A DNA stretch of 63,956 nucleotides from a virus (Duplodnaviria; Caudoviricetes). The notes under the pieces are model-generated. The model saw only the letters and a program-made list of their open reading frames with translations, ran no database searches and had not been told where the DNA came from. Where the stretch lies: IMG/VR virus record IMGVR_UViG_3300010397_000008, positions 1 to 63,956 of that record; one strand, 5' to 3'. Every line of letters starts with the position of its first letter. Position 1 is the stretch's first letter. Shown in pieces: positions 3,811-16,096 of the stretch. Made by a program: the position numbers and the translations under genes.

Positions 3811-4241
3811 GATGGCCCCCTGTAATAAGGCTCGACCCAAATCGTCATGCCGGGCGTCTCCGAGTACCGTTTCAGCACCCGCGCATCGACGACCTGCTTG
3901 TCGTCCCGAAAGACGACCTCGTTGAGCGCGTCGCACAGCTTCAAGGTGTTGTCCGCGTCCGGCTTGACGGTGGGCATGGCCTCGCCGCTCAGCGCGCGGG
4001 CGCGGGCCTTCTTTGACCACGACGCGGGCACCGGAAAGCGAATGTCCATGACCACCGAGATAGGCCCCTCCAAAGGGGGGCGTCCCGCCATCGCCTGCGT
4101 CGCGGCGTGCCGCAACTGCCCCTCGTATTTGACGGTGGCGGGGTCTGAATAGACCCGCGCGCCGACGCCGGGGATCGACACCGCCCGGCCCCGACCCTTA
4201 CCGCGTGGAACCCCCGCCAAGGTGATCGTGATGAGGGTCAC
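3807..4241 (-). CDS. rusA: RusA-family Holliday junction resolvase
   Basis: GKGRGR...KPDADNTLKLCDALNEVVFRDDKQVV motif. Confidence 0.9.
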   Translation of the reverse strand: MTLITITLAGVPRGKGRGRAVSIPGVGARVYSDPATVKYEGQLRHAATQAMAGRPPLEGPISVVMDIRFPVPASWSKKARARALSGEAMPTVKPDADNTLKLCDALNEVVFRDDKQVVDARVLKRYSETPGMTIWVEPYYRGPS

Positions 4242-4786
4242 GCCGCAGCGTGGGTACGCCGCGTCGCGCCACCGAGCGCTTCGACAGCCGCCTTTTGCCC
4301 TTGGCTCCACCCGAGCGAATACGACTGGTATTCCTCGGATGCGACATCGTATCCGCAATTCGACATCGGACTGCCGGCCGTTCCGGCGGCGACGCCTTCC
4401 TCGAACGCGACGTTGTTCTCGTGCTTCTGGATCACCTCGGCGTCCGCGCCGTTGCCGGCCTCGCCCGCTTCGGTCGCGTCCTCGGGGTCGTCGGAAACCG
4501 TCTCGTCGGGATCGACCGGGGCGCTCAGCCAGCGCATATACAGCCGATACCGTTCCTCGTCGGTCTGCCGCTCGTTGGCCGCCTTGAGCGCGTCGTTGTG
4601 GGCGCGTTTCAGCGTCTTTCGGTCGAGCCCGGCGCTCTCGGCGCGCTTGTAGACGGCGGCGACCGCGCTATCCGCCGACGCCTTCACGCGCAGCGCCGTG
4701 GTCAGCATGTCGTTGTATTCGAGCAAAGTTGCTTGATTGACATTTCCGTGCGTCGTCGGCTCTTTCCTCGGGCGTCCTCGGGGCAT
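4238..4786 (-). CDS. AT-hook + GapR(DUF2312)-like + RMF-like fusion protein
   Basis: PRGRPRK; AVYKRAESAGLDRKTLKR...ERQ..E....LY..WL (GapR-like); AFEEGVAAG.AG.....C.Y.......Y..GW..G (ribosome modulation factor-like). Confidence 0.6.
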   Translation of the reverse strand: MPRGRPRKEPTTHGNVNQATLLEYNDMLTTALRVKASADSAVAAVYKRAESAGLDRKTLKRAHNDALKAANERQTDEERYRLYMRWLSAPVDPDETVSDDPEDATEAGEAGNGADAEVIQKHENNVAFEEGVAAGTAGSPMSNCGYDVASEEYQSYSLGWSQGQKAAVEALGGATRRTHAAA

Positions 4787-4813
4787 CTTCTCAGGTTCCT
4801 TTCGGGGTTAAAT

Positions 4814-5355
4814 CATGCTTATCCGGTTGTTACCCACGGCTACTGTCTCTAGACGCGGTTCCGAGGAAGCCGCTCGGGAAAGCCGTAGCGTTTCGACGTG
4901 GCGTTAAACTTCGTCACGACCTCATCAGCGAGGTTTATCCCGAGGCGACAGGCGAGCAAATTGAGATAGAGGAACGTGTCGGCAAGTTCTTCGCCAATTA
5001 CCGCTACCGCTTCTTCGCGTGTTGCCAACAGCCGCCCAGGATCGCTGATATTGGCAATGTCGTCTTCAACACGGCGTAGCTTCTTGATCGCGTTGCATGC
5101 CTCGCCCGCCTCGCCCATCATCGCGACGGCCCAATCAGATGGGGTCCAATCGTTGATGCCGCCTTTGTGCCAGCGGTCGCACCGCGCCACATTGGCTTCG
5201 GTCACGGCGGCGAAAGTCAGCAAACCAGAGGGTAGGCACTTGTGGGCGTGTCCGGCCCATCGTTCCTCACCGCATTCGGGGCAAGGTTTCATCGCGTCCA
5301 TGTAATCGTCAGCCATCAACATCTAGCTCCGTTGGGCGTTAACCGGATAAGCATG
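4814..5355. mobile_element. Non-autonomous IS1595-family-like cassette (ISSod11-type ends) carrying a MazG-like gene
   Basis: Perfect 15-bp TIR CATGCTTATCCGGTT/AACCGGATAAGCATG; flanking 8-mers GGTTAAAT (4806-4813) and GGTTAAAC (5356-5363); no transposase. Confidence 0.75.
4849..5322 (-). CDS. mazG: MazG-like nucleotide pyrophosphohydrolase
   Basis: GEAGEACNAIKK...EELADT..YL..LA...GI.L...V..KFN motif. Confidence 0.85.
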   Translation of the reverse strand: MLMADDYMDAMKPCPECGEERWAGHAHKCLPSGLLTFAAVTEANVARCDRWHKGGINDWTPSDWAVAMMGEAGEACNAIKKLRRVEDDIANISDPGRLLATREEAVAVIGEELADTFLYLNLLACRLGINLADEVVTKFNATSKRYGFPERLPRNRV

Positions 5356-5357
5356 GG

Positions 5358-5720
5358 TTAAACCAGTGGGATTTTAGGCAGATCACGCTTGCGCACCGGC
5401 CATTGCGGCTTGCGCTCTTTCGGCGGCGGCGGTGTCCGCGCGACCGAGGGATCGAAATCGGGCGGGATCAGCGTATAGAGCACCCGCAGCGTATCGCTCT
5501 TTGGTGCCCACGTCGGATCATTGAAGAAGCGCAGCGACGACCGGGGCAGTTGCGCGTGGTGCGCGAGGGTGTAGATCGCCCAGCCCTTGAACGCGACGTA
5601 GGCGCGGATGGCGGCGATGGCGTCGTCCACCGATGGCGCTACCCGGCCGATGTATTTCGGCTCGCGCGGCTGCGGGCGTTTGCGGGGCCGCTTGGTCGGC
5701 GGGGCGGTGTCTGTCGTCAT
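5358..5720 (-). CDS. Cro-like HTH transcriptional regulator
   Basis: LAHHAQLPRSSLR..NDPTWAPKSDTL HTH; first gene after a divergent promoter. Confidence 0.6.
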   Translation of the reverse strand: MTTDTAPPTKRPRKRPQPREPKYIGRVAPSVDDAIAAIRAYVAFKGWAIYTLAHHAQLPRSSLRFFNDPTWAPKSDTLRVLYTLIPPDFDPSVARTPPPPKERKPQWPVRKRDLPKIPLV

Positions 5721-5740
5721 TTTTTCTGCGAAACTTCCTC

Positions 5741-5782
5741 TTGACAGGCGTGCATCCTACGGCACGTAATGGGCGCACGCAA
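5741..5782. promoter_or_regulatory. Overlapping divergent sigma70 promoters with operator CGTGC-N8-GCACG (5749-5766)
   Basis: Rightward TTGACA(5741)...CGTAAT; leftward TTGCGT-N17-TAGGAT. Confidence 0.7.
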
Positions 5783-5803
5783 TAGGGTTCCTACCGACAG
5801 GGA

Positions 5804-6004
5804 ATGACGATGCCTGACGACCTGACTATCTGCGGGGAAGATGCGGCCTACCGCTACACGTGGCCCGGTCGAGACGAGTCGTTCGTTTGCGAGGAACACT
5901 CAAGAAAGATGCGGGCGGTGGCGGCCGCTATGGGTTTGCATCTTCAACTGATCCCAATCGAACCCGCAGTGGGCGAAGCCTGCCGCCAACAGGTTCGCCG
6001 ATGA
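5804..6004 (+). CDS. Small Cys-containing hypothetical protein
   Basis: First gene after the promoter; CCTACCGAC box before the RBS. Confidence 0.55.
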   Translation: MTMPDDLTICGEDAAYRYTWPGRDESFVCEEHSRKMRAVAAAMGLHLQLIPIEPAVGEACRQQVRR

Positions 6005-6162
6005 ACCCCGGCGAAGACCCGCGCCGTGCCGCGCTGAACGAGGCGCTTGACGCGGCGTGGGAAGCCCTCGGCAACGTGCCGCTCGACGACCCACGGCGCG
6101 GGAAGATCGCGCAACGTGTGCGGGCGATTGAGGATGCGCTGGGCGCGATGGAGGGGGAGTGA
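6001..6162 (+). CDS. Hypothetical protein
   Basis: ATGA-coupled ORF. Confidence 0.5.
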   Translation: MNPGEDPRRAALNEALDAAWEALGNVPLDDPRRGKIAQRVRAIEDALGAMEGE

Positions 6163-6447
6163 ATGGCGACCATAAATAGCATCTCGACCGCGATAGACCT
6201 CGACGATGTTTCGATCGACACCGTTCCCGGTCTGATTGATTCCGCCGTCGATCGTCTAGTCGCCGATCTTCTGACCGTACCCGCGTTGGCCCGAGGAAAC
6301 GCACCCGGATTCCGTGTACGGATCATCTCGACGCACCTCGTCCCGGTGAATTGCCACTACAGCGTACCGGAGGGAGGGGGTTCTTTCCGGGATTATCATT
6401 ACAACGAGCGTGGCCTAGTACTCACTATCGTCTACGAGGTTATCTGA
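6163..6447 (+). CDS. Hypothetical protein
   Basis: ORF with SD ggggag. Confidence 0.5.
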   Translation: MATINSISTAIDLDDVSIDTVPGLIDSAVDRLVADLLTVPALARGNAPGFRVRIISTHLVPVNCHYSVPEGGGSFRDYHYNERGLVLTIVYEVI

Positions 6448-6473
6448 CGCTCACCCGTCGAGGATGGATCAAC

Positions 6474-6704
6474 ATGAAGCTCACCGAATCCGAGCGCGGC
6501 GAGGCGTTCGAGGCGATGCGCCGCCGGCAAGAGATGCTGCGGCTTGATGACCATGTCCCGTTGCCCGAGTGGGCGCTGTCCCAATCGACGCCGGGGGAAA
6601 CCCTGCTGGTCGGGCTGTTCGCCGCGCTGGTGGTCGCCGCGCTGACCATTATGGGCGCGCTGGTGTGCCTGTACGGCTGGCGGGTGCTGATCGGGGGCGG
6701 GTGA
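6474..6704 (+). CDS. Small membrane protein
   Basis: Hydrophobic C-terminal segment. Confidence 0.55.
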   Translation: MKLTESERGEAFEAMRRRQEMLRLDDHVPLPEWALSQSTPGETLLVGLFAALVVAALTIMGALVCLYGWRVLIGGG

Positions 6705-7063
6705 TGAATTGTCGCCATTTCCCGACGTATCCGCACTGTTCGTGCGATCCGGTGTCGTGCGTCATGCTGCGATCAACGGCGAATCCTGCCGGGCTTGAGG
6801 CACTACATTCGCCGCCAGCCGCGCAATCCGGCTGGCGGCCGATCGAGACCGCGCCGAAGGATGGAAAACACAAGCCGGTGCTGCTCCATGTCAATTGGGA
6901 GCCGCTGACCGTCGTAGGCTATTGGGGTGCAGCGTCGGACGTTGGCGAGTTCCAAAGCGATGAAGAGACGTGGCGGGTGCTTTGGGACCAAGCGCCAATC
7001 CGAGACGGCTATGACGAGCCGACGCATTGGATGCCGCTGCCAGAACCGCCGGCAGATGGCTGA
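6704..7063 (+). CDS. DUF551-like phage protein
   Basis: GWRPIETAPKDG...PTHWMPLPEPP. Confidence 0.8.
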   Translation: MNCRHFPTYPHCSCDPVSCVMLRSTANPAGLEALHSPPAAQSGWRPIETAPKDGKHKPVLLHVNWEPLTVVGYWGAASDVGEFQSDEETWRVLWDQAPIRDGYDEPTHWMPLPEPPADG

Positions 7064-7472
7064 CCATGACCCTCGCCCGCGCGTGCTCGACCACCCCGAA
7101 CCGGGGCTGTGGCTAATCCGCTGCTGCCCGCGCTGTCCGTGGGTGCCGGCGCGGATCGTCATGGTGCAGGTTTCGCACGAGCCAGGGCAGCCGGACAACG
7201 ACATGAGGGGCACCCGGTCGCCGTTTCTCGCCGCGTTCATCAGCGGCCAGCCGGTCGCGGTCAGCGACGTGTGGGGTCGGCGCGGGCGGATCATCACCCG
7301 TTCAGAATATGAACGAGCGGTCGCCGAGATCGCGGCGGCGGTGCGCGAGAACCGATATGACCCCCGTTGCGCCCCGTTCAAAGCCGTCGAGATAGAGAGT
7401 CTGCCGCTGCCGTTTCAGGAGGAAGCCGATGCCCGACGACCAAGCGCCGCCCGACGTAGGCATAGGGCATAA
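7056..7472 (+). CDS. Hypothetical phage protein
   Basis: PEPGLW.....RCPWVPARI motif; coupled to neighbours. Confidence 0.6.
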   Translation: MADHDPRPRVLDHPEPGLWLIRCCPRCPWVPARIVMVQVSHEPGQPDNDMRGTRSPFLAAFISGQPVAVSDVWGRRGRIITRSEYERAVAEIAAAVRENRYDPRCAPFKAVEIESLPLPFQEEADARRPSAARRRHRA

Positions 7473-8199
7473 TCAGCCTCCGCTTTCCGAGGTCTTGGCC
7501 GAAAACACCAAGCCACTGCGCGAGCGCGCGGAGGCGCTGATCGCGTCCGTCAACGCTGCCCGCATTGACAGCCCCGAAACCGCCGCTCAGGTCACCACGC
7601 TCGGCGGCATGCTGCGCGACCTGCGCGAGAAGGCCGAGGCGGCGCGCAAGGAGTCGGCCAGGCCGTTCGACGACGGCAAGGCGGCGGTACAGTTGGCCTA
7701 CGCGCGCGGTATCCTGGACCCACTCGACGCGGCGATGACCGCGTGCCGGAAGATGCTCGACGCATGGCGGGCGCAACTGGATGCTGCCGCCGCGGCCGAG
7801 CGCCGCAAACGGGACGAGGAAGCCGCCGAAGCCCGCCGTGTCGCCGAGGACGCCGAGCAGCGCCAACGTGACGCCGAAGCCGCGGGTGATCCCGGTGCGG
7901 CGATCAAGGCCGAGATGGAGGCGATGCAGGCCGCCGAGCGCGCTGAGAAGTTGGCGAGCGACGCCGGCACGATCCGGCCATCCGAGCCGATTCGTACCCA
8001 GACGGGGATGGCGTCGGCAGCGACAACCCGAGTTCCGACCGTGACGAATATTGGGCTATGCCTGCGATGGATGCTCGAAAATCAGTCTGCCGCGCTGATC
8101 GAGGCAATCAGCCCGCTCGTCGCTCGGCTGACGCGGGCGAAGGTCGAGATACCGGGCGTCGAGGTCAAGGAAGTGGCGGCAACGAGGTTCCGGCGATGA
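7429..8199 (+). CDS. Coiled-coil phage protein (recombination region)
   Basis: IGHNQPP start, E/A/R-rich coiled coil, C-terminal EIPGVEV. Confidence 0.7.
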   Translation: MPDDQAPPDVGIGHNQPPLSEVLAENTKPLRERAEALIASVNAARIDSPETAAQVTTLGGMLRDLREKAEAARKESARPFDDGKAAVQLAYARGILDPLDAAMTACRKMLDAWRAQLDAAAAAERRKRDEEAAEARRVAEDAEQRQRDAEAAGDPGAAIKAEMEAMQAAERAEKLASDAGTIRPSEPIRTQTGMASAATTRVPTVTNIGLCLRWMLENQSAALIEAISPLVARLTRAKVEIPGVEVKEVAATRFRR

Positions 8200-8402
8200 G
8201 TGCCCCGCGCCGTCTCCCGCTCAAGGCCGCGTTCATGCGTGCCGACGTTTGCGAGTACGGCTGCCCCGTCGTCATCATGTGCGATCAGGACGGCAACACG
8301 ATCGCCGAGGCCCATCTTATGCCCGAGCACGTCGAGGCGTTCGTTGCCCAGGTTCGCGATGCTGCCGAGGTCGGCGCGGCTAAGCGGAGGCCGGTGGCGT
8401 GA
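8196..8402 (+). CDS. Hypothetical protein
   Basis: ATGA-coupled ORF. Confidence 0.5.
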   Translation: MSAPRRLPLKAAFMRADVCEYGCPVVIMCDQDGNTIAEAHLMPEHVEAFVAQVRDAAEVGAAKRRPVA

Positions 8403-8516
8403 AGGTGATGCTGGTCGAGATCGGCTATCGCAAATACGTCGTGGAGCCGCGCGACGCGATCCTGCTGCTTGAAATCGCATCCCGCGTCATCGAGGTCGAA
8501 CAGAAGCATTACAAAG

Positions 8517-9296
8517 GGGAATTATATAGATGACTTCCTCGCGCGTTGAACGGATCGGCGATGCGACGCTGTATCTCCGAGACTGTCGGGATTGTATCCA
8601 GCAGATCGGGCTGGCACAGGAACGCGCCCCTGATTTAGCGGTCATTAGCGACCCGCCCTACGGCATGGATTTCGATACCGACAGCCGGCGCTTCACGGGC
8701 GGCACGATTCGGCGGGGAACAGGGAGGGACGATCGGTCCATCGCCGGCGACGCCGCCTCCTTCGATCCGGCGCCATGGCTCACCTTTGATGAGGTCATCC
8801 TCTGGGGCGCAAATCACTACGCGCAAAAACTGCCGATCGGCTCGACGCTGATCTGGCTCAAGCGCTATCAGGAGCATTACGGCAGCTTCTTGTCGGATGC
8901 CGAGATCGGCTGGCAGCGGGGCGGGCATGGGGTCTATGCGCTGCATGCGCCCGATAGCAGCGGCCGCCGGCGCCTGGAATTCACCGGCAGCGCGTTCGGA
9001 GATGAGACCGCGCATCCGTTCCAGAAGCCGATCGCGCTGATGGCCTGGTGTATCGAGCGCGTTAAAGGCCGTGCAATCCTCGACCCCTTCATGGGCTCCG
9101 GCACCACTGGCGTTGCCGCCCTGCGCCTCGGCCGCAAATTCATCGGTATTGAGATCGAAGAGCGCTGGTTCGATATCGCCTGCAGGCGGATCGAAGCGGA
9201 GGCAAACCAACCACGCCTAGCAATCGGCAGCGCACCGCCGCGACCGGCGGCTTTGGAGCCGATGCTGTGACCGAGGAAGTTAAATATATAATTCCC
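8517..9296. mobile_element. Non-autonomous IS1595-family-like cassette (ISNwi1-type ends) carrying a DNA methyltransferase
   Basis: 25-bp TIR GGGAATTATATA-(GATG/TTTA)-ACTTCCTCG; perfect 8-bp TSD TTACAAAG (8509-8516, 9297-9304); no transposase. Confidence 0.9.
8530..9270 (+). CDS. Orphan N4-cytosine/N6-adenine DNA methyltransferase (beta class)
   Basis: DPPY, HP.QKP, and DPFMGSGTTG motifs. Confidence 0.9.
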   Translation: MTSSRVERIGDATLYLRDCRDCIQQIGLAQERAPDLAVISDPPYGMDFDTDSRRFTGGTIRRGTGRDDRSIAGDAASFDPAPWLTFDEVILWGANHYAQKLPIGSTLIWLKRYQEHYGSFLSDAEIGWQRGGHGVYALHAPDSSGRRRLEFTGSAFGDETAHPFQKPIALMAWCIERVKGRAILDPFMGSGTTGVAALRLGRKFIGIEIEERWFDIACRRIEAEANQPRLAIGSAPPRPAALEPML

Positions 9297-9434
9297 TTAC
9301 AAAGAGGCGTGGCGGCAAGCCGCCGAGCAAGAGCCGTTTATCAGCGAGGCTCACTTGGTCAATTATGATCCGCTGGCGCTGCCGGAATTGCCCCAAGACC
9401 CCGTTGCCGCCGTACCCGTTACGGAGATGCCGTT

Positions 9435-9935
9435 TTGACCATCACCATCCTCCCGCCCGAGGCAGACCCGATCAAGACGCTGCGCACGATGGCAGCGTTC
9501 GGCATGGACGAGGGGCGCGGCATCGCCGAGATAAAGCGCGGCGACATCACGTTTACCGGCGTCAACGCGCAGCCGGTCATCGGCCTCGCGATCCTGTGCA
9601 AGACACCCGAAAAGACGCCGATCCCGATTTACGACGTGGCGACGCGCGGTGTCGAGGTCACGATGCTGGCCGATTGGCTCAAGGCGCGCGGGTTCGAGGC
9701 GAGCGCGTGCCGGTGGAACCGGAACCGAATAATCGGCCCCCCCAACTCTGCCGCTCATCGTCCTGCGTGGGAGCTTGTGACCGGCCCGGCCGATGTCCCG
9801 GCGATGCCGCCGGAGTTCCCACAAGGGCCGGCCATGAGCCAAATTGAGGTTGCAATGCGGCAAGCCGAATTGCAACGGCGCATCAACGAGATGCAGATGC
9901 GTGTGCCACCGTCATACGAGTGCGAGAGGAAATGA
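9435..9935 (+). CDS. Hypothetical protein
   Basis: TTG start coupled to the restored upstream gene. Confidence 0.55.
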   Translation: MTITILPPEADPIKTLRTMAAFGMDEGRGIAEIKRGDITFTGVNAQPVIGLAILCKTPEKTPIPIYDVATRGVEVTMLADWLKARGFEASACRWNRNRIIGPPNSAAHRPAWELVTGPADVPAMPPEFPQGPAMSQIEVAMRQAELQRRINEMQMRVPPSYECERK

Positions 9936-11260
9936 CCATGCCTGACGACGTGAAATCGCAGCAGATCGAGAAGCGCATAGACCGCGAGGTTGCGGGTGGA
10001 CTGTCCATCGTCAGCGGTGCCGGCACCATGACAATCGCGCCCCGCAACATGGGCGAGTTGATGGAGTTCGCGAAGCTCATGGCCGTGGCCGGCGACTGCA
10101 TCCGTCCAGCCTTTCGGGGCAATGCGGGCGCGTGCCTGTCGCTGTGCCTCCAAGCCTTCCGCTGGGGCGCGGACCCGTTCGCGGTCGCCAACAAGGCGTA
10201 TATCACCACCGGCAAGGCCGGGACGCAGATCGCCTACGAGGCGCAGCTTATCAACGCCATCGTCCACAACTCGCCGATGCTCGCGCGGCGCCTGCGGTCC
10301 CGATACGAAGGCGCCGGCCAGCAGCGCAAATGCATCGTCACCGGATGGGTGCGCGGCGAGGACGAGCCGTTCGAGTACGAGTCCCCGACCATCGCGCAGA
10401 TCGCCGTCAAAAACTCGCCGCTCTGGCAGGGCGACCCCGACCAGCAACTCGCGTACTACAGCACCCGCGCGTGGGCGCGGCGGTATCTGCCCGAGGTTCT
10501 GCTCGGCATCTATTCGCCCGACGAAGTGCAAGGCGAGGTCATCGACATAACGCCCGCACAGGGCACTATCCAGGAGGCGGCACGCGCCGATCTCACCCAG
10601 CCGATCCCGTGGGAGGTATTCGACGCCGCCGGCGAGGTCTACGAGTTCGAGATGTCCGATAAGGCCGTCGAGGCGTGCCGCAAGATACTGATCGCGAGCG
10701 CCGCCGACCCGGCGATGCTGGCGACGGCGTGGGAGAACAACGCCGCCTTCATCGTGTCGCTCGGGCAGGATGGGCTTGAAGATGACGCGCGGGCCATCGA
10801 GCGGCTTTACGCCGAACTGGCACCGAAGCAAGAGGTCGGTCATCCGGGACAGACCCCGGATGGTATGGCGGCGGCGTCCGTCAAAGGGGGGGAGGAAGCC
10901 ACGCCGGGCACGCCTCCCCCCGCCGAAGCCACAACCGATTCTCCGCCGGTGCAGCAAACACAGGAGGACGCGAATGGGATTGACGGCCCTGTGCCGGCGG
11001 GGGATGCCGCATCACGTTCGGAGCCGCCCGCTGATCTACTCGGCAACCCGCGCCCCGAGAACCTGACCGTCCCACTGCCGCGCAAACCCGATCTGGATCA
11101 CGTCGCCCGGCAACTGCTCGCGATGATCGCCGAGGCACCGGGCGACGCCTTGCGCCGCAACCGGATCAAGATGGCGAACGAAAGCGCCCTACTCGTCCTC
11201 AAGGCTGGCGCGGTCGAGCGTTACGACGAGGTTCAGGCGGCGCTCCACCGGGGCGCGTAG
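9932..11260 (+). CDS. recT: RecT-family single-strand annealing protein with a long C-terminal extension
   Basis: QAFRWGADPFAVANK...YEAQL...NSPLW..DPDQQLAY...R.WARRY.PEVLLGIY. Confidence 0.85.
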   Translation: MTMPDDVKSQQIEKRIDREVAGGLSIVSGAGTMTIAPRNMGELMEFAKLMAVAGDCIRPAFRGNAGACLSLCLQAFRWGADPFAVANKAYITTGKAGTQIAYEAQLINAIVHNSPMLARRLRSRYEGAGQQRKCIVTGWVRGEDEPFEYESPTIAQIAVKNSPLWQGDPDQQLAYYSTRAWARRYLPEVLLGIYSPDEVQGEVIDITPAQGTIQEAARADLTQPIPWEVFDAAGEVYEFEMSDKAVEACRKILIASAADPAMLATAWENNAAFIVSLGQDGLEDDARAIERLYAELAPKQEVGHPGQTPDGMAAASVKGGEEATPGTPPPAEATTDSPPVQQTQEDANGIDGPVPAGDAASRSEPPADLLGNPRPENLTVPLPRKPDLDHVARQLLAMIAEAPGDALRRNRIKMANESALLVLKAGAVERYDEVQAALHRGA

Positions 11261-11393
11261 CCGCGTAGTCGGCCAGCATCGCCGCCGCCCCCTCGATCCC
11301 TAGCCCTGCCGTCAGCCGAGCGCGATCGGTCGGCGGCAGGCGCATGATGAAGCGGATCGCCTCGGCGTGTGGCGGGCTCGTCAAGTCAGCCAT
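11199..11393 (-). CDS. Small hypothetical protein (paralog of the ORF at 12499-12735)
   Basis: Shared HAEA.RFIMRLPP..RARLTAGLGIEGAA. Confidence 0.5.
   Translation of the reverse strand: MADLTSPPHAEAIRFIMRLPPTDRARLTAGLGIEGAAAMLADYAATRPGGAPPEPRRNARPRQP
11284..11369. repeat. 86-bp imperfect direct repeat, copy 1 (copy 2 at 12617-12702)
   Basis: Ungapped alignment by eye with about 10 mismatches. Confidence 0.85.
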
Positions 11394-11549
11394 TTAGCAA
11401 CCGTAGGGGTCACGGCCCACGATGCGGCCCACGCCAGCCCCACCGCGCCCGCGATCACCATCCTCGGGCAATAGCGTCAGCAGAATCGGGATCGCGAAAC
11501 AGAGCGCCACGCCGACCAGAATCCACCAGCAGGAGCGCGGGGTTCTCAC
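11394..11549 (-). CDS. Small membrane protein
   Basis: WWILVGVALCFAIPILLTLL transmembrane segment (not in the ORF track). Confidence 0.45.
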   Translation of the reverse strand: MRTPRSCWWILVGVALCFAIPILLTLLPEDGDRGRGGAGVGRIVGRDPYGC

Positions 11550-11615
11550 AGCGCATCCCCATCTTTTTTATCGGTAATCATCGTGTCTTCGGAAGACGAG
11601 CGAGCGTCATAGGGG

Positions 11616-11921
11616 TTAGGATTTCCGATCAGTCCCGCTTCGGATCGCTTCATCGCCGATCACCTGAATCGATTTCTCGTGCAGGAGCGCAGCACTAATA
11701 GCGGCACGGACGTCCGAGATTCGCATTCTCATCAGGTTGGAGCGAGGGATAGAAAAGCGCATAGTCCCTAACTCAATGAGTTCAGCCTTAGTCCTTAGGT
11801 CATCAGCGATAAATTCTTCGACCGCTTTTGCATCCATATTACGAAGCAGTTCAGGCTTTGATATCCTGTCCTGAATGGCGCGCCGCATGGCTCGCGGTCT
11901 TGCGCTGGCGTGCGTTGTCAT
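11616..11921 (-). CDS. Hypothetical protein coupled to the ParA remnant
   Basis: ATGA overlap with the ParA-like fragment; lower GC. Confidence 0.55.
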   Translation of the reverse strand: MTTHASARPRAMRRAIQDRISKPELLRNMDAKAVEEFIADDLRTKAELIELGTMRFSIPRSNLMRMRISDVRAAISAALLHEKSIQVIGDEAIRSGTDRKS

Positions 11922-12121
11922 AGCGCATCTATCCGCGTCTTGAGAGCATCGGTGAGATTGCGGTACATTTGGTCCAGACCACGGCCACCCACATTTTGAG
12001 TTCCGGACCGATCATATACCGGTACGCCCTGAGAAAGCGCCTGTGAAACTCCGGTCCCCTCTTCGATATATGGGGTAGCAAGGTTTGGTCCCCACCTTCG
12101 CTGAAGTGATCCGCGGTACAC
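11918..12121 (-). pseudogene. C-terminal remnant of a ParA-family ATPase
   Basis: PYIEEGTGVSQALSQGVPVY...YRNLTDAL resembles a ParA C-terminus; no Walker A part upstream. Confidence 0.55.
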
Positions 12122-12616
12122 ACTTGAGTTTTTGGGCTGAATGTGCGACTACGCTTCAGGTGGTGGGCACTTGAAGGATCTGGGATGTCGGAGCCACTCA
12201 ACGCTTACGGCCAGATATCCGTCTGACCGAAGCCCCCTATTTCGCACCCCTTATATCTGCCGCTCAGTAGAACGAAAATTCCTGTTCCGGCATCGTAATA
12301 AAATAATTTCTTAAGTTGATTGTGGCTAATTTCAAACATCAGCGTCTCCCATGAACGCTTCCATACTTCATGTATCGCCTTCCATTCTCTGTATAGCTGT
12401 AATTTGCATTTGCGTCCACTTCCTCGACCACCGCCATGCGGCCGAGGCAGGATTCCAAACCCTCCATCAGAACCCGGTAGAGCCCGCTTTCCGCCTCGTC
12501 ACCGAGGGAGCCGCCCTTCCCCAGCATGCGCGCATAGCCGCCGGCCAGCGCGTTCAGCGTCAGCTTCGCGCCCCGCGCGATCTGCACCGCCGGCATTGCG
12601 CTCGTCATCCGCCCGA

Positions 12617-12702
12617 GCCGCCCCCTCAATCCCTAATCCTGCCGTCAGCCTAGCGCGCTCGACCGGCGGCAGCCGCATGATGAAGCGGACGGCCTCGGCG
12701 TG
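12617..12702. repeat. 86-bp imperfect direct repeat, copy 2
   Basis: Matches 11284-11369. Confidence 0.85.
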
Positions 12703-12883
12703 ATCCGTCACCATTTCGGGATCGGACGCTGCCACGCCTCCATGAGACTGCCCCAGAGCGTTTTCGGCCGCGGCGCCGCGGCGATCCGCTCAAGCGCATC
12801 AACCGCCCGTTCTTCGAGAGTCGGCCGAGGCTTCGGGGCCGGCGGCAGGTAAGGCGATGGCCGCCAAGGACCGATGAAATCGG

Positions 12884-13264
12884 TCACAACAGCGACAGCA
12901 CTACCGGAAGCACCATGCCGGCGATCCGCGCCGCCATCTGGACATAGCCCAAGACTTGCGGCAACCAGGTCAGCGAGCTTTGGTCGGCATTTCCGGTCGA
13001 TCCGCTGAGCATCTGTTCGCAATAGGCGTAGGGGTAGACCGCGACATCCCGGACCATTTTCGGTGCCGCGGCGCCGGTCGCAGCGATCAGTGACGGGGCG
13101 GCGGCGACGCAGGTGTCCTTGATCGCCGCCAGATCGCCGGCCGATAGGTTGCGGACGCTGCCAACGGCGTAGTCTTGCGCCAGGTCGATGCCGGTCTGCT
13201 GGGCGCCACCTTGGCAACCCGCGAGGATGAGAGTGATGGCGGCGGCGGCGAGGATGCGGTTCAT
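12884..13264 (-). CDS. Lipoprotein (lysis region, possibly spanin-related)
   Basis: Signal peptide MNRILAAAAITLILAG-C with a lipobox. Confidence 0.65.
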   Translation of the reverse strand: MNRILAAAAITLILAGCQGGAQQTGIDLAQDYAVGSVRNLSAGDLAAIKDTCVAAAPSLIAATGAAAPKMVRDVAVYPYAYCEQMLSGSTGNADQSSLTWLPQVLGYVQMAARIAGMVLPVVLSLL

Positions 13265-13482
13265 GTCCGGGGGCTCCCGTCTGGATTGCGGGTGATCGCG
13301 ATGTTGGCCCACATGGCGCAATCGCGAAGCTGGCGCAACAGATAGGTCTTGTCGGGACCGTCCGGCACGATGCCGTCGATCTCGGTAGCAAGGCTCTCAA
13401 ATTCCGCTCGGACGTGCGCCATTATTTCAAGTTGCGCATCGGTCGGTTTGAGATATTGAAACGTCGAGGGGTGCAGGCTCAT
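13261..13482 (-). CDS. Acb2/Tad1-like helical-hairpin protein (candidate immune-signal sponge)
   Basis: FQYLKPT..Q......R..F..LA..I....PDG.DK...L..L....MWAN.AI pattern. Confidence 0.65.
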   Translation of the reverse strand: MSLHPSTFQYLKPTDAQLEIMAHVRAEFESLATEIDGIVPDGPDKTYLLRQLRDCAMWANIAITRNPDGSPRT

Positions 13483-13601
13483 TCAACAAACTCCTGTTGC
13501 GGTTCCGGCTGGTAGAAGATGATCGTGCATGTGGCGACTAGCGCGCAGGCGACCACGATCGCGAGGATCGTCGCCGAGCCGCGCGGAGTCCATACCCTCA
13601 C
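13479..13601 (-). CDS. Small membrane protein
   Basis: ATILAIVVACALVATCTIIF transmembrane segment, coupled at both ends (not in the ORF track). Confidence 0.45.
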   Translation of the reverse strand: MRVWTPRGSATILAIVVACALVATCTIIFYQPEPQQEFVE

Positions 13602-13924
13602 CTGATCGGCGCGCCGAACACGCCCCAGCCAAGAAGCCCGATCAGGATATAGACCAGCTGTCTGTCAATGTACCGGATGATGACCTTCTCGCGGGGAACG
13701 CGCTTTTTGTCCAGCTTCGTAAGAAGGTCGGGGAGGCCCCGCGCTTCTGCGCTTACATTTCCTTCAAAAACGGCCACCCATTTATACGGATGGTCATTGA
13801 TCATCCGGGGATGGTTGCTGGAAAGCACCTTCGCTGCTTCAACAAAAGAACGAAGCTCTCGATCAATTTGGGCTGCGGACCCGCCAAGATGCTCTAACGC
13901 CTCCGCTGTGGAAAATTTGGGCAT
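13598..13924 (-). CDS. DUF5678-like protein fused to the tail of a small membrane protein (chimera)
   Basis: HPYKWVAVFEGNVSAEA..L..L; abrupt switch to LVYILIGLLGWGVFGAPIR and to GC-rich codons. Confidence 0.55.
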   Translation of the reverse strand: MPKFSTAEALEHLGGSAAQIDRELRSFVEAAKVLSSNHPRMINDHPYKWVAVFEGNVSAEARGLPDLLTKLDKKRVPREKVIIRYIDRQLVYILIGLLGWGVFGAPIR

Positions 13925-14111
13925 GACATGATGACTCCTTTCCTGATAGCCTTACGGAGTCAATCTAATGACCTTGTTTTTAGTGACGAGATGGGTCTAA
14001 ACTTGATTATATTAATCAAGTTTTAAATCCATCTCTATATACCTAATGCTAAATTTGCGTGTGTCAAGTGCGTTTTTTGCATGGCTGGGATTCGTGCATT
14101 CTACCCCGTTA

Positions 14112-14348
14112 TTATTTCTTTAGTTTCCAACGCACTGCCTGTCCGTCTTTGATCCGCTCGACATGGCCACGGAGCGCCATCTGATCGAGGCGGACAAGGA
14201 ACCGACCGACGAAGGTAGCACGAACGCCAGCATCCTCAATTCGCTTCTCAGAGAGCGCGATGTCGGCCAGCTCGGCGGCCGACACCGTCTCGCGGATCCT
14301 ACAGTCGAGGTCGCGGCCACGCTGGACGCCGCCATTGAACAGAAACAC
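14112..14348 (-). pseudogene. C-terminal fragment of a winged-helix-like protein
   Basis: SAAELA...L....RGHVERI......WKL; the 5' part is missing. Confidence 0.4.
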
Positions 14349-14377
14349 ATCAGCATCGATTCCACGCGCCGCGGCGG

Positions 14378-14899
14378 TTGCTTTTTCCAGACCTTGAGGG
14401 ACGTGCGACGCTTTCCTTTTATAAGATTATTCGTGACTACATTCGGTCGCGATCGATGCGGATCGCCACGGAGTACGGCAAGCGGCTCGCCCTCAAGTCG
14501 CAGAACCTGAAGCCAGACACGCTAAAGGCGCTTGCGGAAACATACTCTTCACACTCGTTTGTTATTGATCAACACGAGGCCGAAAGCCTCTTTGAGAACG
14601 TTCGCGGGGCCAATGAGGCCGAACAGGAACTGGTGGCGGCGCTTGGCCGCTATGCCAGATTCGAGATGGCAAGACCTGCGGATCTGGTGTTTGAAGCGTT
14701 ATCTAAGGACGATGAAGTTCCAAAGGAGGCCACCGATGCCAAAAATCAGCAAGGCGGAAGCGCGGCGCCTGATGGACGAGATTCTGCGCGAGCAGATGGA
14801 GCGGCCAGCCCTGCGCCCAAGCGACAGCGACGCCGCCGCAGCCAATCCATTTCGGACGGAAACGGACGTGATCGTGCCGCGCCCGACGCCGGCTGCTGA
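14378..14899 (+). pseudogene. C-terminal remnant of an SDH/SppA-like (Clp-fold) serine protease
   Basis: RSMRIATEYG.RL.......L..L...Y.SH.FVID..EA..L; catalytic N-terminal part absent. Confidence 0.55.
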
Positions 14900-14976
14900 C
14901 GATCGTGACAACGCGCGGGTCTGATTGGCGCGCTGTCGCGATCGTTGGAGGGGCTGATGCCGATCACCGGGCATCT

Positions 14977-15351
14977 TTAGCGCCTCGCCACCGTCACAAG
15001 CGCCCCCGGCATCGGTGCCGCAGCGGTCGCGGCATCCGCCAGAGCGACCCCCTCGGCGGTCGGCATCGTCTCCACTTTCGCGACCTCCGGCATCTTCGCA
15101 ACCGTGGCGACCAGATTGGCCTGCTTGTGCGTGATGACGCCCCAGGTGCCGGATGCCGCCACGCCGAGCGAGCCGACGGCCATCAGCACCAGCGTCGTCG
15201 CGGTGCTGATAAACTGCTCATTTGACAAGATCGCCGTCACCTGTGCCTGGGAAATCCAGCCCTTCGCGACGGCCCATGTCGCGAGCGAGGAACCGGCCGC
15301 GGTAATGAGCGTGCGCCAAGCGCTGTTGATCTGTTCCTGTGACGGGTTCAT
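14977..15351 (-). CDS. Putative holin
   Basis: Small protein with 2-3 transmembrane segments at the end of the late operon. Confidence 0.55.
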   Translation of the reverse strand: MNPSQEQINSAWRTLITAAGSSLATWAVAKGWISQAQVTAILSNEQFISTATTLVLMAVGSLGVAASGTWGVITHKQANLVATVAKMPEVAKVETMPTAEGVALADAATAAAPMPGALVTVARR

Positions 15352-15593
15352 ATCGCCTCATCCTTTGCTGGCGCGTTGAGGATCATATCACGTTCCGCGC
15401 GAAACTCGGCGATCCGCGCGGAGATGGTTGCAGCATCCTCCACCGCGTATTCCCGACGCGCCGGCTCGGGCCGCAATGCCTCTTTCCCCCATTGCGGCAC
15501 GCACGGTTGAGCGACGCGCGCATGGTGGACAGAAGTGGTGCCGCAGTGGACGCAACGCTGGCTCAGCGGTTCAAACTCGTGCTCGTTCGTCAC
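15348..15593 (-). CDS. Small CxxC protein
   Basis: HEF.....RCVHCG; GTGA-coupled. Confidence 0.5.
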   Translation of the reverse strand: MTNEHEFEPLSQRCVHCGTTSVHHARVAQPCVPQWGKEALRPEPARREYAVEDAATISARIAEFRAERDMILNAPAKDEAI

Positions 15594-16096
15594 GGCGCCC
15601 GCCCCTTGAACGCGTTGAGGGCAAGGGTCGAGAGCGCGATCAGCAGCATCAACCCGGCGACGATCCACCCCAGCATGTCGCCCCGCCCGCCGCTCTGCCC
15701 GCCGCTCTCCCACCGGAATTGCTCTAACTTTGCTGTCCGTTCCGAGAGGTCGGTCTTGACCTCCTTCAACTGCGTCGCCAGCAGCATCGAGGATGCGTCC
15801 ACGTTCGCGCGGATGACCCTCGCCAGTTCCAGATCGAAAATCTGCTTCTGCGCGGCCAACTCGTTGAGCCGGCGCGTCTCGGCGTCCCGCATCGCGTTCT
15901 GATACTTGCCCTCGGCGGTCCGCAGGTCATCCTGCCGCTTGTTGGCCGCTTCGGAGAGCGCCTTCACGTTCTCGGTCGGGTCGATCACCTGACCGCCACG
16001 AGCATCAACGCCGATGCCAGGCCGCCCCGGCACGGGGTCTTGAGCGCCTGCCGGGATGCAGATCAACAGGAACAAGACGGCCCAAGCGGCGATCAT
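15590..16096 (-). CDS. Membrane-anchored coiled-coil protein (lysis region)
   Basis: Signal peptide, coiled coil and C-terminal transmembrane segment. Confidence 0.6.
   Translation of the reverse strand: MIAAWAVLFLLICIPAGAQDPVPGRPGIGVDARGGQVIDPTENVKALSEAANKRQDDLRTAEGKYQNAMRDAETRRLNELAAQKQIFDLELARVIRANVDASSMLLATQLKEVKTDLSERTAKLEQFRWESGGQSGGRGDMLGWIVAGLMLLIALSTLALNAFKGRAP

Follow-up and report, generated by a model that had tools for sequence, protein, structure and literature searches.

Single-gene cassettes with IS1595-family ends in the genome of an uncultured phage

Introduction

Mobile insertion cassettes (MICs) are exemplified by MIC231 of the Bacillus cereus group (De Palmenaer et al., 2004; PMC3129680). 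They consist of insertion sequence (IS)-type repeats around one or more genes unrelated to transposition, carry no transposase and are expected to be mobilised in trans. Here we describe two units of this organisation, cassettes A and B, in a complete virus record of 63,956 bp with terminal repeats (IMG/VR record IMGVR_UViG_3300010397_000008, Caudoviricetes), the whole of which is called the window below. Both units have the defining features of an MIC: repeats of IS type enclose a gene with no part in transposition, and a transposase is missing. They differ from MIC231 in that their ends are of the IS1595 family (IS231 belongs to the IS4 family), that they reside in phage genomes, that a single open reading frame (ORF) runs from a leader to the right repeat, and that many cargos of the wider population are methyltransferases.

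The IS1595 family generates 8-bp target-site duplications (TSDs) and has ISSod11 and ISNwi among its named subgroups (PMC8101967). For the same family, 'transporter ISs' (tIS) have been described (PMC3129680 and PMC4611040). The tIS and the elements studied here share a transposase family (PF12762 plus PF12760), 8-bp TSDs and passengers lying inside the repeats. tIS-like elements with the ends described below occur in viral contigs (loci L072, L123, L156, L158, L035 and L040); unlike tIS, the window units are without any transposase. Transporter ISs of the IS1595 family were reportedly treated by Siguier, Gagnevin and Chandler in 2009.

Three further systems deserve comparison. MPME1 and MPME2 are ultra-small mycobacteriophage elements that have inverted repeats and occupy differing positions in the genomes of close relatives (Sampson et al., 2009). 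They are 439-440 bp long and nearly constant in sequence, add 6 bp at one end and produce no 8-bp TSD (PMC3029335); they have neither the IS1595 link nor the varied cargo of the cassettes. Integron gene cassettes are similar by analogy only, being mostly promoterless, compact single ORFs with diverse cargo and conserved boundaries. The window cassettes, unlike these, have inverted repeats and TSDs instead of a 3' attC and belong to a population at dispersed A/T-rich sites rather than at one attI next to intI; the tyrosine integrase family PF00589 had no match in the window (IntI itself was not searched for). Phage morons resemble the cassettes in being single accessory genes between two phage genes, often with a GC content below that of their flanks. 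A moron brings its own promoter and terminator but neither a terminal inverted repeat (TIR) nor a TSD, whereas the window cassettes have TIRs and TSDs and no promoter or terminator matches.

Phage accessory and counter-defence genes move fast between unrelated phages, for which recombination and morons are the mechanisms most often named; phage genomes are generally held to contain few ISs. Both MICs and ISs with passengers are known concepts, and IS1595-end cassettes in phages are widespread among uncultured phages, where they apparently form a large, undescribed population of gene-carrying mini-transposons. A full-text literature search found no description of them; an earlier mention is possible, the 2009 IS1595 paper and the ISfinder tables lying outside that search.

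Results

Two single-gene cassettes without a transposase

A repeat search of the window returned two inverted-repeat pairs, each around one ORF. Their features, in window coordinates, are as follows.

4814-5355, minus strand: cassette A, with terminal inverted repeats, an 8-bp target duplication matching at 7/8 positions and a single long ORF
4806-4813, no strand: TSD copy 1 of cassette A (GGTTAAAT), directly outside terminus 4814; 7/8 match to 5356-5363
4814-4848, minus strand: cargo-distal end of cassette A (right inverted repeat, IRR), made of the 15-mer CATGCTTATCCGGTT and the subterminal bases as far as the cargo stop codon
4849-5322, minus strand: cassette A cargo, MazG-like nucleoside-triphosphate pyrophosphohydrolase, 157 aa (weak PF12643 match, PDB and structure matches)
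5323-5355, minus strand: cargo-proximal end of cassette A (left inverted repeat, IRL), made of the terminal 15-mer and an 18-nt leader in which GGAG stands 5 nt ahead of the ATG
5356-5363, no strand: TSD copy 2 of cassette A (GGTTAAAC), 7/8 match to copy 1
8517-9296 (780 bp), plus strand: cassette B, with 25-nt arms, a perfect 8-bp TSD and a single ORF
8509-8516, no strand: TSD copy 1 of cassette B (TTACAAAG), a perfect 8-bp direct repeat with 9297-9304 that fits nWWnnWWn (see below)
8517-8541, plus strand: left inverted repeat of cassette B (GGGAATTATATAGATGACTTCCTCG), containing the cargo start codon at element position 14
8530-9270, plus strand: cassette B cargo, N6/N4 (DPPY-type) DNA methyltransferase, 246 aa (PF01555, phrog_67)
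9272-9296, minus strand: right inverted repeat of cassette B, starting 1 nt past the cargo stop codon
9297-9304, no strand: TSD copy 2 of cassette B (TTACAAAG), a perfect match to copy 1

The 15-mer bounding cassette A is found at 4814 on the plus strand and inverted at 5341-5355 on the minus strand, and occurs exactly twice in the window; two further matches with 3 mismatches are no more than chance would give (expectation, 1.0). At other loci the 8 bases outside this terminus vary and are repeated at the far end. A 24-nt repeat pair from 4805 had been considered as the ends of cassette A, and was replaced by the 15-mer termini after comparison with these loci. The start codon of the cargo lies 34 nt from the terminus, the same distance as in L070 and L109. 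The MazG-like assignment combines a match to PF12643 (E 2.5e-4, 21.7 bits, below the cut-off of 27), a PDB match to dCTP pyrophosphatase 1 (E 0.002) and a predicted structure with TM scores of 0.65-0.70 to viral MazG-like clusters in an atlas structure search; the N-terminus is rich in Cys and His.

The arms of cassette B (8517-8541 and 9272-9296) are 88% complementary over 25 nt, and its end pattern occurs twice in the window versus 0.00 times expected in window shuffles. The methyltransferase matches PF01555 (68.1 bits), phrog_67 (E 1.3e-36) and a CcrM-like region (E 7e-17), and has homologues within cassettes with B ends (L041) and with A ends (L109). In GenBank phages there was no nucleotide match to window 4000-16000, and matches to cassette B were confined to conserved methylase cores. 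Its likely ribosome-binding site (RBS; AAAGGGGA, within 8509-8533) lies about 9 nt before the ATG. This site is composed of the target duplication and the first bases of the left repeat, so that translation signals depend partly on the insertion site.

Both cargos are oriented like their neighbours: that of cassette A like both adjacent genes, and that of cassette B like the exonuclease (7429-8199) and RecT (9920-11260) genes. The GC content is 0.58-0.62 in the cassettes versus 0.66 in their flanks (window mean, 0.64). Pfam and PHROG matches elsewhere in the window include a large terminase (phrog_2), virion structural proteins and RusA besides the exonuclease and RecT. The transposase families PF12762, PF00665, PF01609 and PF07282 had no match in the window, PF12762 not even at E <= 1 (other transposase families were not searched). 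The initial annotation of the window had proposed two cassettes of one gene each, free of transposase and aligned with their operons; repeats, TSDs, single ORFs and orientation all agree with this, as does the lack of matches to the families searched.

A contig identical to the window at 100% (L281) is filed in a bacterial metagenome-assembled genome (MAG) titled Ramlibacter, a label that gives a weak hint of the host. Its alignment wraps from window position 91 to 63956 with an overlap of 30 nt, consistent with a circular or terminally redundant assembly. The IS1595 transposase (PF12762) was not found in the assembly with this contig, which is incomplete, so that absence is not implied.

The same ends bound IS1595-family transposase genes

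The 15-mer CATGCTTATCCGGTT also terminates elements with an IS1595 transposase (L072, L123, L156, L158 and L177), and the terminus of cassette B also flanks IS1595 transposase genes (L035, L040 and L014). All six long elements tested (1.7-2.0 kb, same termini) matched PF12762 (DDE_Tnp_IS1595; E 1e-32 to 2e-44) and PF12760 (Zn_ribbon_IS1595), and the NCBIfam model 'IS1595 family transposase' (NF033547) gave 186 and 194 bits (cut-off, 75). The transposases of A-end and B-end elements are homologous to each other. Bacterial assemblies contain canonical ISs of 1093-1170 bp, which encode a transposase of about 342 aa with 60-68% identity to its viral counterpart; that of L177 has 342 aa. The proposal that the cassette ends are of the IS1595 family is thus supported, since identical termini enclose genes with both domains elsewhere. 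The termini of A and B also fit the ISfinder end consensuses of ISSod11 (nnnGcnTATC) and ISNwi1 (ggnnatTAT), respectively, which makes these their putative subgroups.

Shared termini and 8-bp TSDs are present in the window units, and the DDE_Tnp_IS1595 transposase of an autonomous IS, which in most subgroups also has a Zn ribbon at its N-terminus, is not. Because PF12762 has no match in the window and the ORFs encode a methyltransferase and a MazG-like protein, the units are IS1595 derivatives and not ISs. Searching 50,697 GenBank phage records with these transposases gave 3 weak matches, a scarcity that may explain why such elements have gone unnoticed.

All 12 transposase-bearing viral elements (1.6-2.25 kb) carry a passenger, and 4/6 bacterial ones, at 1.09-1.17 kb, are plain ISs. 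It may be that every autonomous copy borne by a phage brings cargo with it.

Recurrence of the ends and target duplications

We scanned viral contigs and bacterial assemblies with exact end patterns, from which frequencies cannot be derived and for which A-end counts are lower bounds. In viral contigs the B end pattern was found in 46 loci and the A 15-mer in at least 119; a longer A pattern was found in at least 120 loci of bacterial assemblies, isolates included, and those listed belong, to go by their record titles, chiefly to the Alpha- and Betaproteobacteria and the Acidobacteria. Together, the window and the viral loci gave 53 unique inverted pairs with exact ends, 44 of them with a perfect 8-bp flanking repeat. 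Cassette A is the sole exact-end pair with a 7/8 TSD, bringing those with at most one mismatch to 45/53.

A relaxed census started from the exact ends (173 viral A, 57 viral B and 141 bacterial A), allowed 2-3 mismatches in the partner end and required a TSD with at most 1 mismatch. Among the matches listed, it comprised 62 A and 17 B distinct viral elements (79) and 42 bacterial A elements. The chance expectation for an end pair with a TSD is about 0.002 over the 173 viral A ends (by arithmetic, not shuffles). Comparison by tblastn with two transposases sorted the 121 elements among the matches listed into these classes.

Full transposase: viral A 9, viral B 3, bacterial A 6, total 18
Transposase fragment: viral A 1, viral B 1, bacterial A 3, total 5
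Size of a miniature inverted-repeat transposable element (<270 bp): viral A 3, viral B 1, bacterial A 8, total 12
Cargo without transposase similarity (>=270 bp): viral A 49, viral B 12, bacterial A 25, total 86

The TSDs themselves are A/T-rich: 57 distinct ones have a GC content of 29%, versus 50-66% in the flanks, and follow the pattern nWWnnWWn, with A or T at positions 2, 3, 6 and 7 in 46-53 of the 57. This is the behaviour of a real transposase choosing its targets. Several viral contigs have 2-5 ends each, and one contig other than the window has an A and a B cassette together. Units with TIRs and an 8-bp TSD that lack a transposase gene are common in viral contigs, at many sites and each with its own TSD, in line with the initial annotation.

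Two arrangements stand out. Within L047:3538-4588, two A-type left ends (3546 and 3989) each follow the 8-mer GAAAGAAC, which is found again past the only right end, at 4580; the two units, one a partial and one a complete cassette, stand in tandem or are nested. A scaffold of Rhodoplanes elegans has two identical copies of a 644-bp cassette about 64 kb apart (L279 and L284), both with ATCGCATT as their TSD, a pattern that suggests a duplicated region rather than two separate insertions.

Cargo genes fill the elements

Gene calls in this analysis are simple ORF calls. Elements of 270-999 bp (n = 82) have a longest ORF that takes up a median of 85% of their length, versus 41% after shuffling, and that reaches at least 0.7 of the element in 85% of cases versus 4% of shuffles. 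Most cargo ORFs have their start codon 14-63 nt from one terminus, and many stop within the opposite repeat, for example with the TAA of ...TAACCGGATAAGCATG. Together with the 86 elements without transposase similarity, this filling of the element by one ORF shows the cargos to be something other than decayed transposase genes.

Within the exact-pair set, 36 cassettes lack a transposase; their cargos, scanned with Pfam, fall into 30 sequence clusters. Ten of the 36 are DNA methyltransferases of five Pfam families (PF01555, 3; PF02086, 1; PF00145-like, 3; PF05869, 2; PF05063, 1), with 8/10 matches above the curated cut-off. Among the remaining cargos there were weak matches to MazG-like and PAPS-reductase-like families and to one domain of unknown function, and 23/36 had no Pfam match. 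In our judgement methyltransferases may be enriched. A counter-defence role of the cargo, as initially supposed, is not established by this list, in which the 10 methyltransferases stand against 23 proteins without a Pfam match. The recurrent cargo of L070 belongs with viral clusters that have a faint papain-like fold signal.

The nearest relatives of the window cargos in other viral contigs lie outside such elements: IS1595-type ends flanked 0/2 relatives of the cassette A cargo (69-76% identity) and 0/30 relatives of the cassette B cargo (30-66% identity), two of the latter having a single isolated end-like motif. The window cargos are therefore ordinary phage genes that in some lineages lie between IS ends.

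From full elements to single-gene cassettes

The elements form a series from IS to transposase-plus-passenger element, transposase-deleted element and single-gene cassette. Passenger-bearing elements with A ends have the order left end, passenger or passengers, transposase gene, right end; with B ends the order is left end, transposase gene, passenger, right end. As an example of a deletion step, L006 (947 bp) corresponds to an L040-type element (1675 bp) without positions 76-803 (728 bp, most of the transposase gene), at 93% identity and with a different TSD. L124, L141 and L169 each have, as their only cargo, a homologue of the L072 passenger. Related cassettes also occupy different sites: L070 (a viral contig) and L232 (a bacterial chromosome) share 80% identity, and L116 and L255 have related cargos. 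Conversely, L079, L071 and L060 have 100% identical ends of 40-50 nt, including ATG-TTG-A, around unrelated interiors of different lengths. The initial annotation would have been contradicted by units confined to one site and explicable by IS decay, and the related cassettes at different sites are the opposite of this.

Cassette formation through an alternative internal end was considered and rejected, no internal repeat copies having been found in transposase-plus-passenger elements. The notion that genes are repeatedly taken up between IS ends stands in part. TSD-flanked single-gene units do occur at multiple sites, but no mechanism was found for an integron-like capture.

A near-palindromic subterminal motif (CTAGATGTAG or CTACATGTAG) is present just inside both ends of many A-type cassettes (L128, L081, L047, L070, L109 and others). 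It is a candidate for a second site of protein binding or for a recombination site involved in cargo exchange.

Discussion

Cassettes A and B are very probably non-autonomous IS1595 derivatives, i.e. MICs, in which one promoterless cargo replaces the transposase gene. As no matching transposase was found in the phage, the enzyme presumably came in trans. Each cassette would have entered an A/T-rich intergenic 8-bp target in the early and recombination gene region by DDE transposition, duplicating that target, and the transposase could have been that of a full-length IS in a host chromosome, or that of a transposase-plus-passenger element carried by another phage residing in or infecting the same cell. 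Mobilisation by a cognate transposase would find indirect support in the transposase-deleted derivative and in the related cassettes with differing sites and TSDs. Translation of the cargo would start from the RBS and start codon at the element end (GGAG/ATG), 14-60 nt from the terminus; transcription would probably occur by read-through from the surrounding operon, because no promoter match was found. The methylase of cassette B likely protects the phage against host restriction by self-methylation, and the MazG-like enzyme of cassette A likely hydrolyses nucleotide-pool compounds or alarmones. The sequences show the repeats, the target duplications, the tie of these ends to IS1595 transposases, what the cargos are, their recurrence at many sites and the series of forms; mobilisation in trans, the arrival of the window copies by this route, their expression and a benefit to the phage we infer.

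Several observations weigh against this explanation. The cognate transposase was found neither in the window nor in the incomplete assembly holding L281, and no sigma-70-like promoter was found in or beside either window cassette. Cassette A has one TSD mismatch and repeats that diverge beyond 15 nt, and may be an old, now immobile insertion. Eight of the 53 exact-end pairs are without a TSD; these are probably ends of different elements. The labels 'viral' and 'bacterial' of the loci are blurred. Co-orientation is a further weak point: it had been expected as a rule, and while both window cassettes follow it, a crude ORF-based count gave 51 flank genes co-oriented versus 36 opposed (p = 0.13, not significant); where both flanks were on one strand, a hand count gave 14 co-oriented versus 7. 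Finally, searches for an empty site or a presence-absence polymorphism of either window cassette gave none. Viral contigs yielded no close relative of RecT or of the ORF at 4238-4786, and the metagenome relatives of RecT are 47-58% identical. The contigs of one DNA run containing the stretch (probably its source) had no joint that skipped either cassette, an observation that counts neither for nor against. Locus L325, in which an exonuclease, a small ORF and RecT are present without a methylase, was examined as an empty site and rejected as too distant.

A stronger claim would be that IS1595 ends are a modular platform for gene exchange among phages, into which unrelated promoterless ORFs are slotted precisely between identical ends by a dedicated capture or swap process, and which preferentially spreads anti-restriction methylases and small anti-defence genes. 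Such a platform would be the transposase-driven equivalent of the pool of integron cassettes. The left end of about 45 nt would supply RBS and start codon, the right end of about 40 nt would supply or abut the stop, and cassettes would hop between unrelated phages and prophages through transposases of the host or of other phages. We hold this view only tentatively, as the less probable extension of the MIC explanation.

Alternatively, complete ISs might have inserted at these two sites and had their transposase core overwritten later by phage genes, leaving immobile fossils that never travelled as cassettes. The lack of a transposase in the window, the imperfect TSD and diverged subterminal repeats of cassette A, and the closest cargo relatives being ordinary phage genes without repeats would all agree with such replacement in situ. 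Single-ORF units with perfect TSDs at dozens of sites, unrelated cargos between identical ends and related cargos at different sites (L070 and L232; L116 and L255; L124, L141 and L169) do not, and replacement would need to stop exactly at start and stop codons each time. We regard it as improbable.

Less probable still is that the cassettes are general MICs of bacterial chromosomes, with viral counts inflated by prophages and mis-binned contigs and no special link to phages. The finding of A ends in at least 120 bacterial-assembly loci, isolates included, would fit this, as would the genes flanking 13 bacterial copies (95 ORFs), which gave a mixture of phage-like and cellular PHROG matches, and the filing of an identical window copy inside a bacterial MAG. 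Against this, the virus record that forms the window is complete, encodes a large terminase and virion proteins and has no integrase match; several viral contigs have 2-5 ends, the cargo relatives are viral, and passengers are found in 12/12 viral transposase-bearing copies where 4/6 bacterial ones are plain ISs. The idea that the inverted repeats are regulatory or recombination palindromes of the phage (moron boundaries, terminators or recombinase sites) draws on the intergenic position of the repeats and on morons commonly carrying single accessory genes, yet is already contradicted by flanking 8-bp duplications that vary by site, by termini that also bound IS1595 transposase genes and canonical 1.09-1.17-kb bacterial ISs, and by the lack of a terminator match or terminator-like structure at the window cassette ends, and we give it almost no credence.

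With the MIC explanation, single genes between IS1595 ends represent a route of gene gain that can be scanned for, in which insertion scars date and delimit each gain. The signature of end motif plus nWWnnWWn 8-bp duplication can serve to retrieve recently acquired phage genes, and a cargo list rich in DNA methyltransferases and small proteins of no known function offers natural candidates for anti-defence screens. It also raises a testable question, namely how an ORF gets placed exactly between two ends of 40-50 nt.

Low-GC patches and neighbouring genes

Downstream of the cassettes, the GC content falls to 0.50-0.54 at 11.6-12.4 kb and to 0.47-0.57 at 13.6-14.8 kb. These patches had been taken for debris of bacterial or IS-passenger type; the dips are real and the second contains a broken bacterial-type gene, but neither debris in the first nor a link to IS ends was borne out. 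No IS1595-type end, Rfam family or tRNA was found in either patch, and the ORFs at 11.6-12.4 kb had no Pfam or PHROG match, which led us to reject the patches as IS cargo. One ORF of the first patch has just three database relatives.

A direct repeat of 86 nt (88% identical; 11284-11369 and 12617-12702) brackets the 1.25-kb first patch; the duplicated sequence encodes the N-terminal part (...HAEAxRFIMRLPP..RARLTAGLGIEGAA) of a small ORF on the minus strand. The repeat looks like an insertion or recombination scar left by a mechanism other than IS1595 transposition.

The broken gene of the second patch (14301-14812) encoded an SDH-family Clp-fold serine protease of about 340 aa, with PF01972 relatives that are largely bacterial. 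Its C-terminal half (residues ~141-318) lies at 14393-14812 on the plus strand, residues ~12-41 lie adjacent and head-to-head at 14390-14301 on the minus strand, and residues ~42-140 are missing, which points to an inversion plus a deletion.

Between the patches, a 73-aa ORF (13261-13482, minus strand) matches the Acb2/Tad1 hairpin domain PF24729 (35.2 bits, cut-off 27) and phrog_1454 (E 2e-13). The encoded protein may serve as a cyclic-nucleotide sponge that counters CBASS or Thoeris; its gene lies outside the cassettes.

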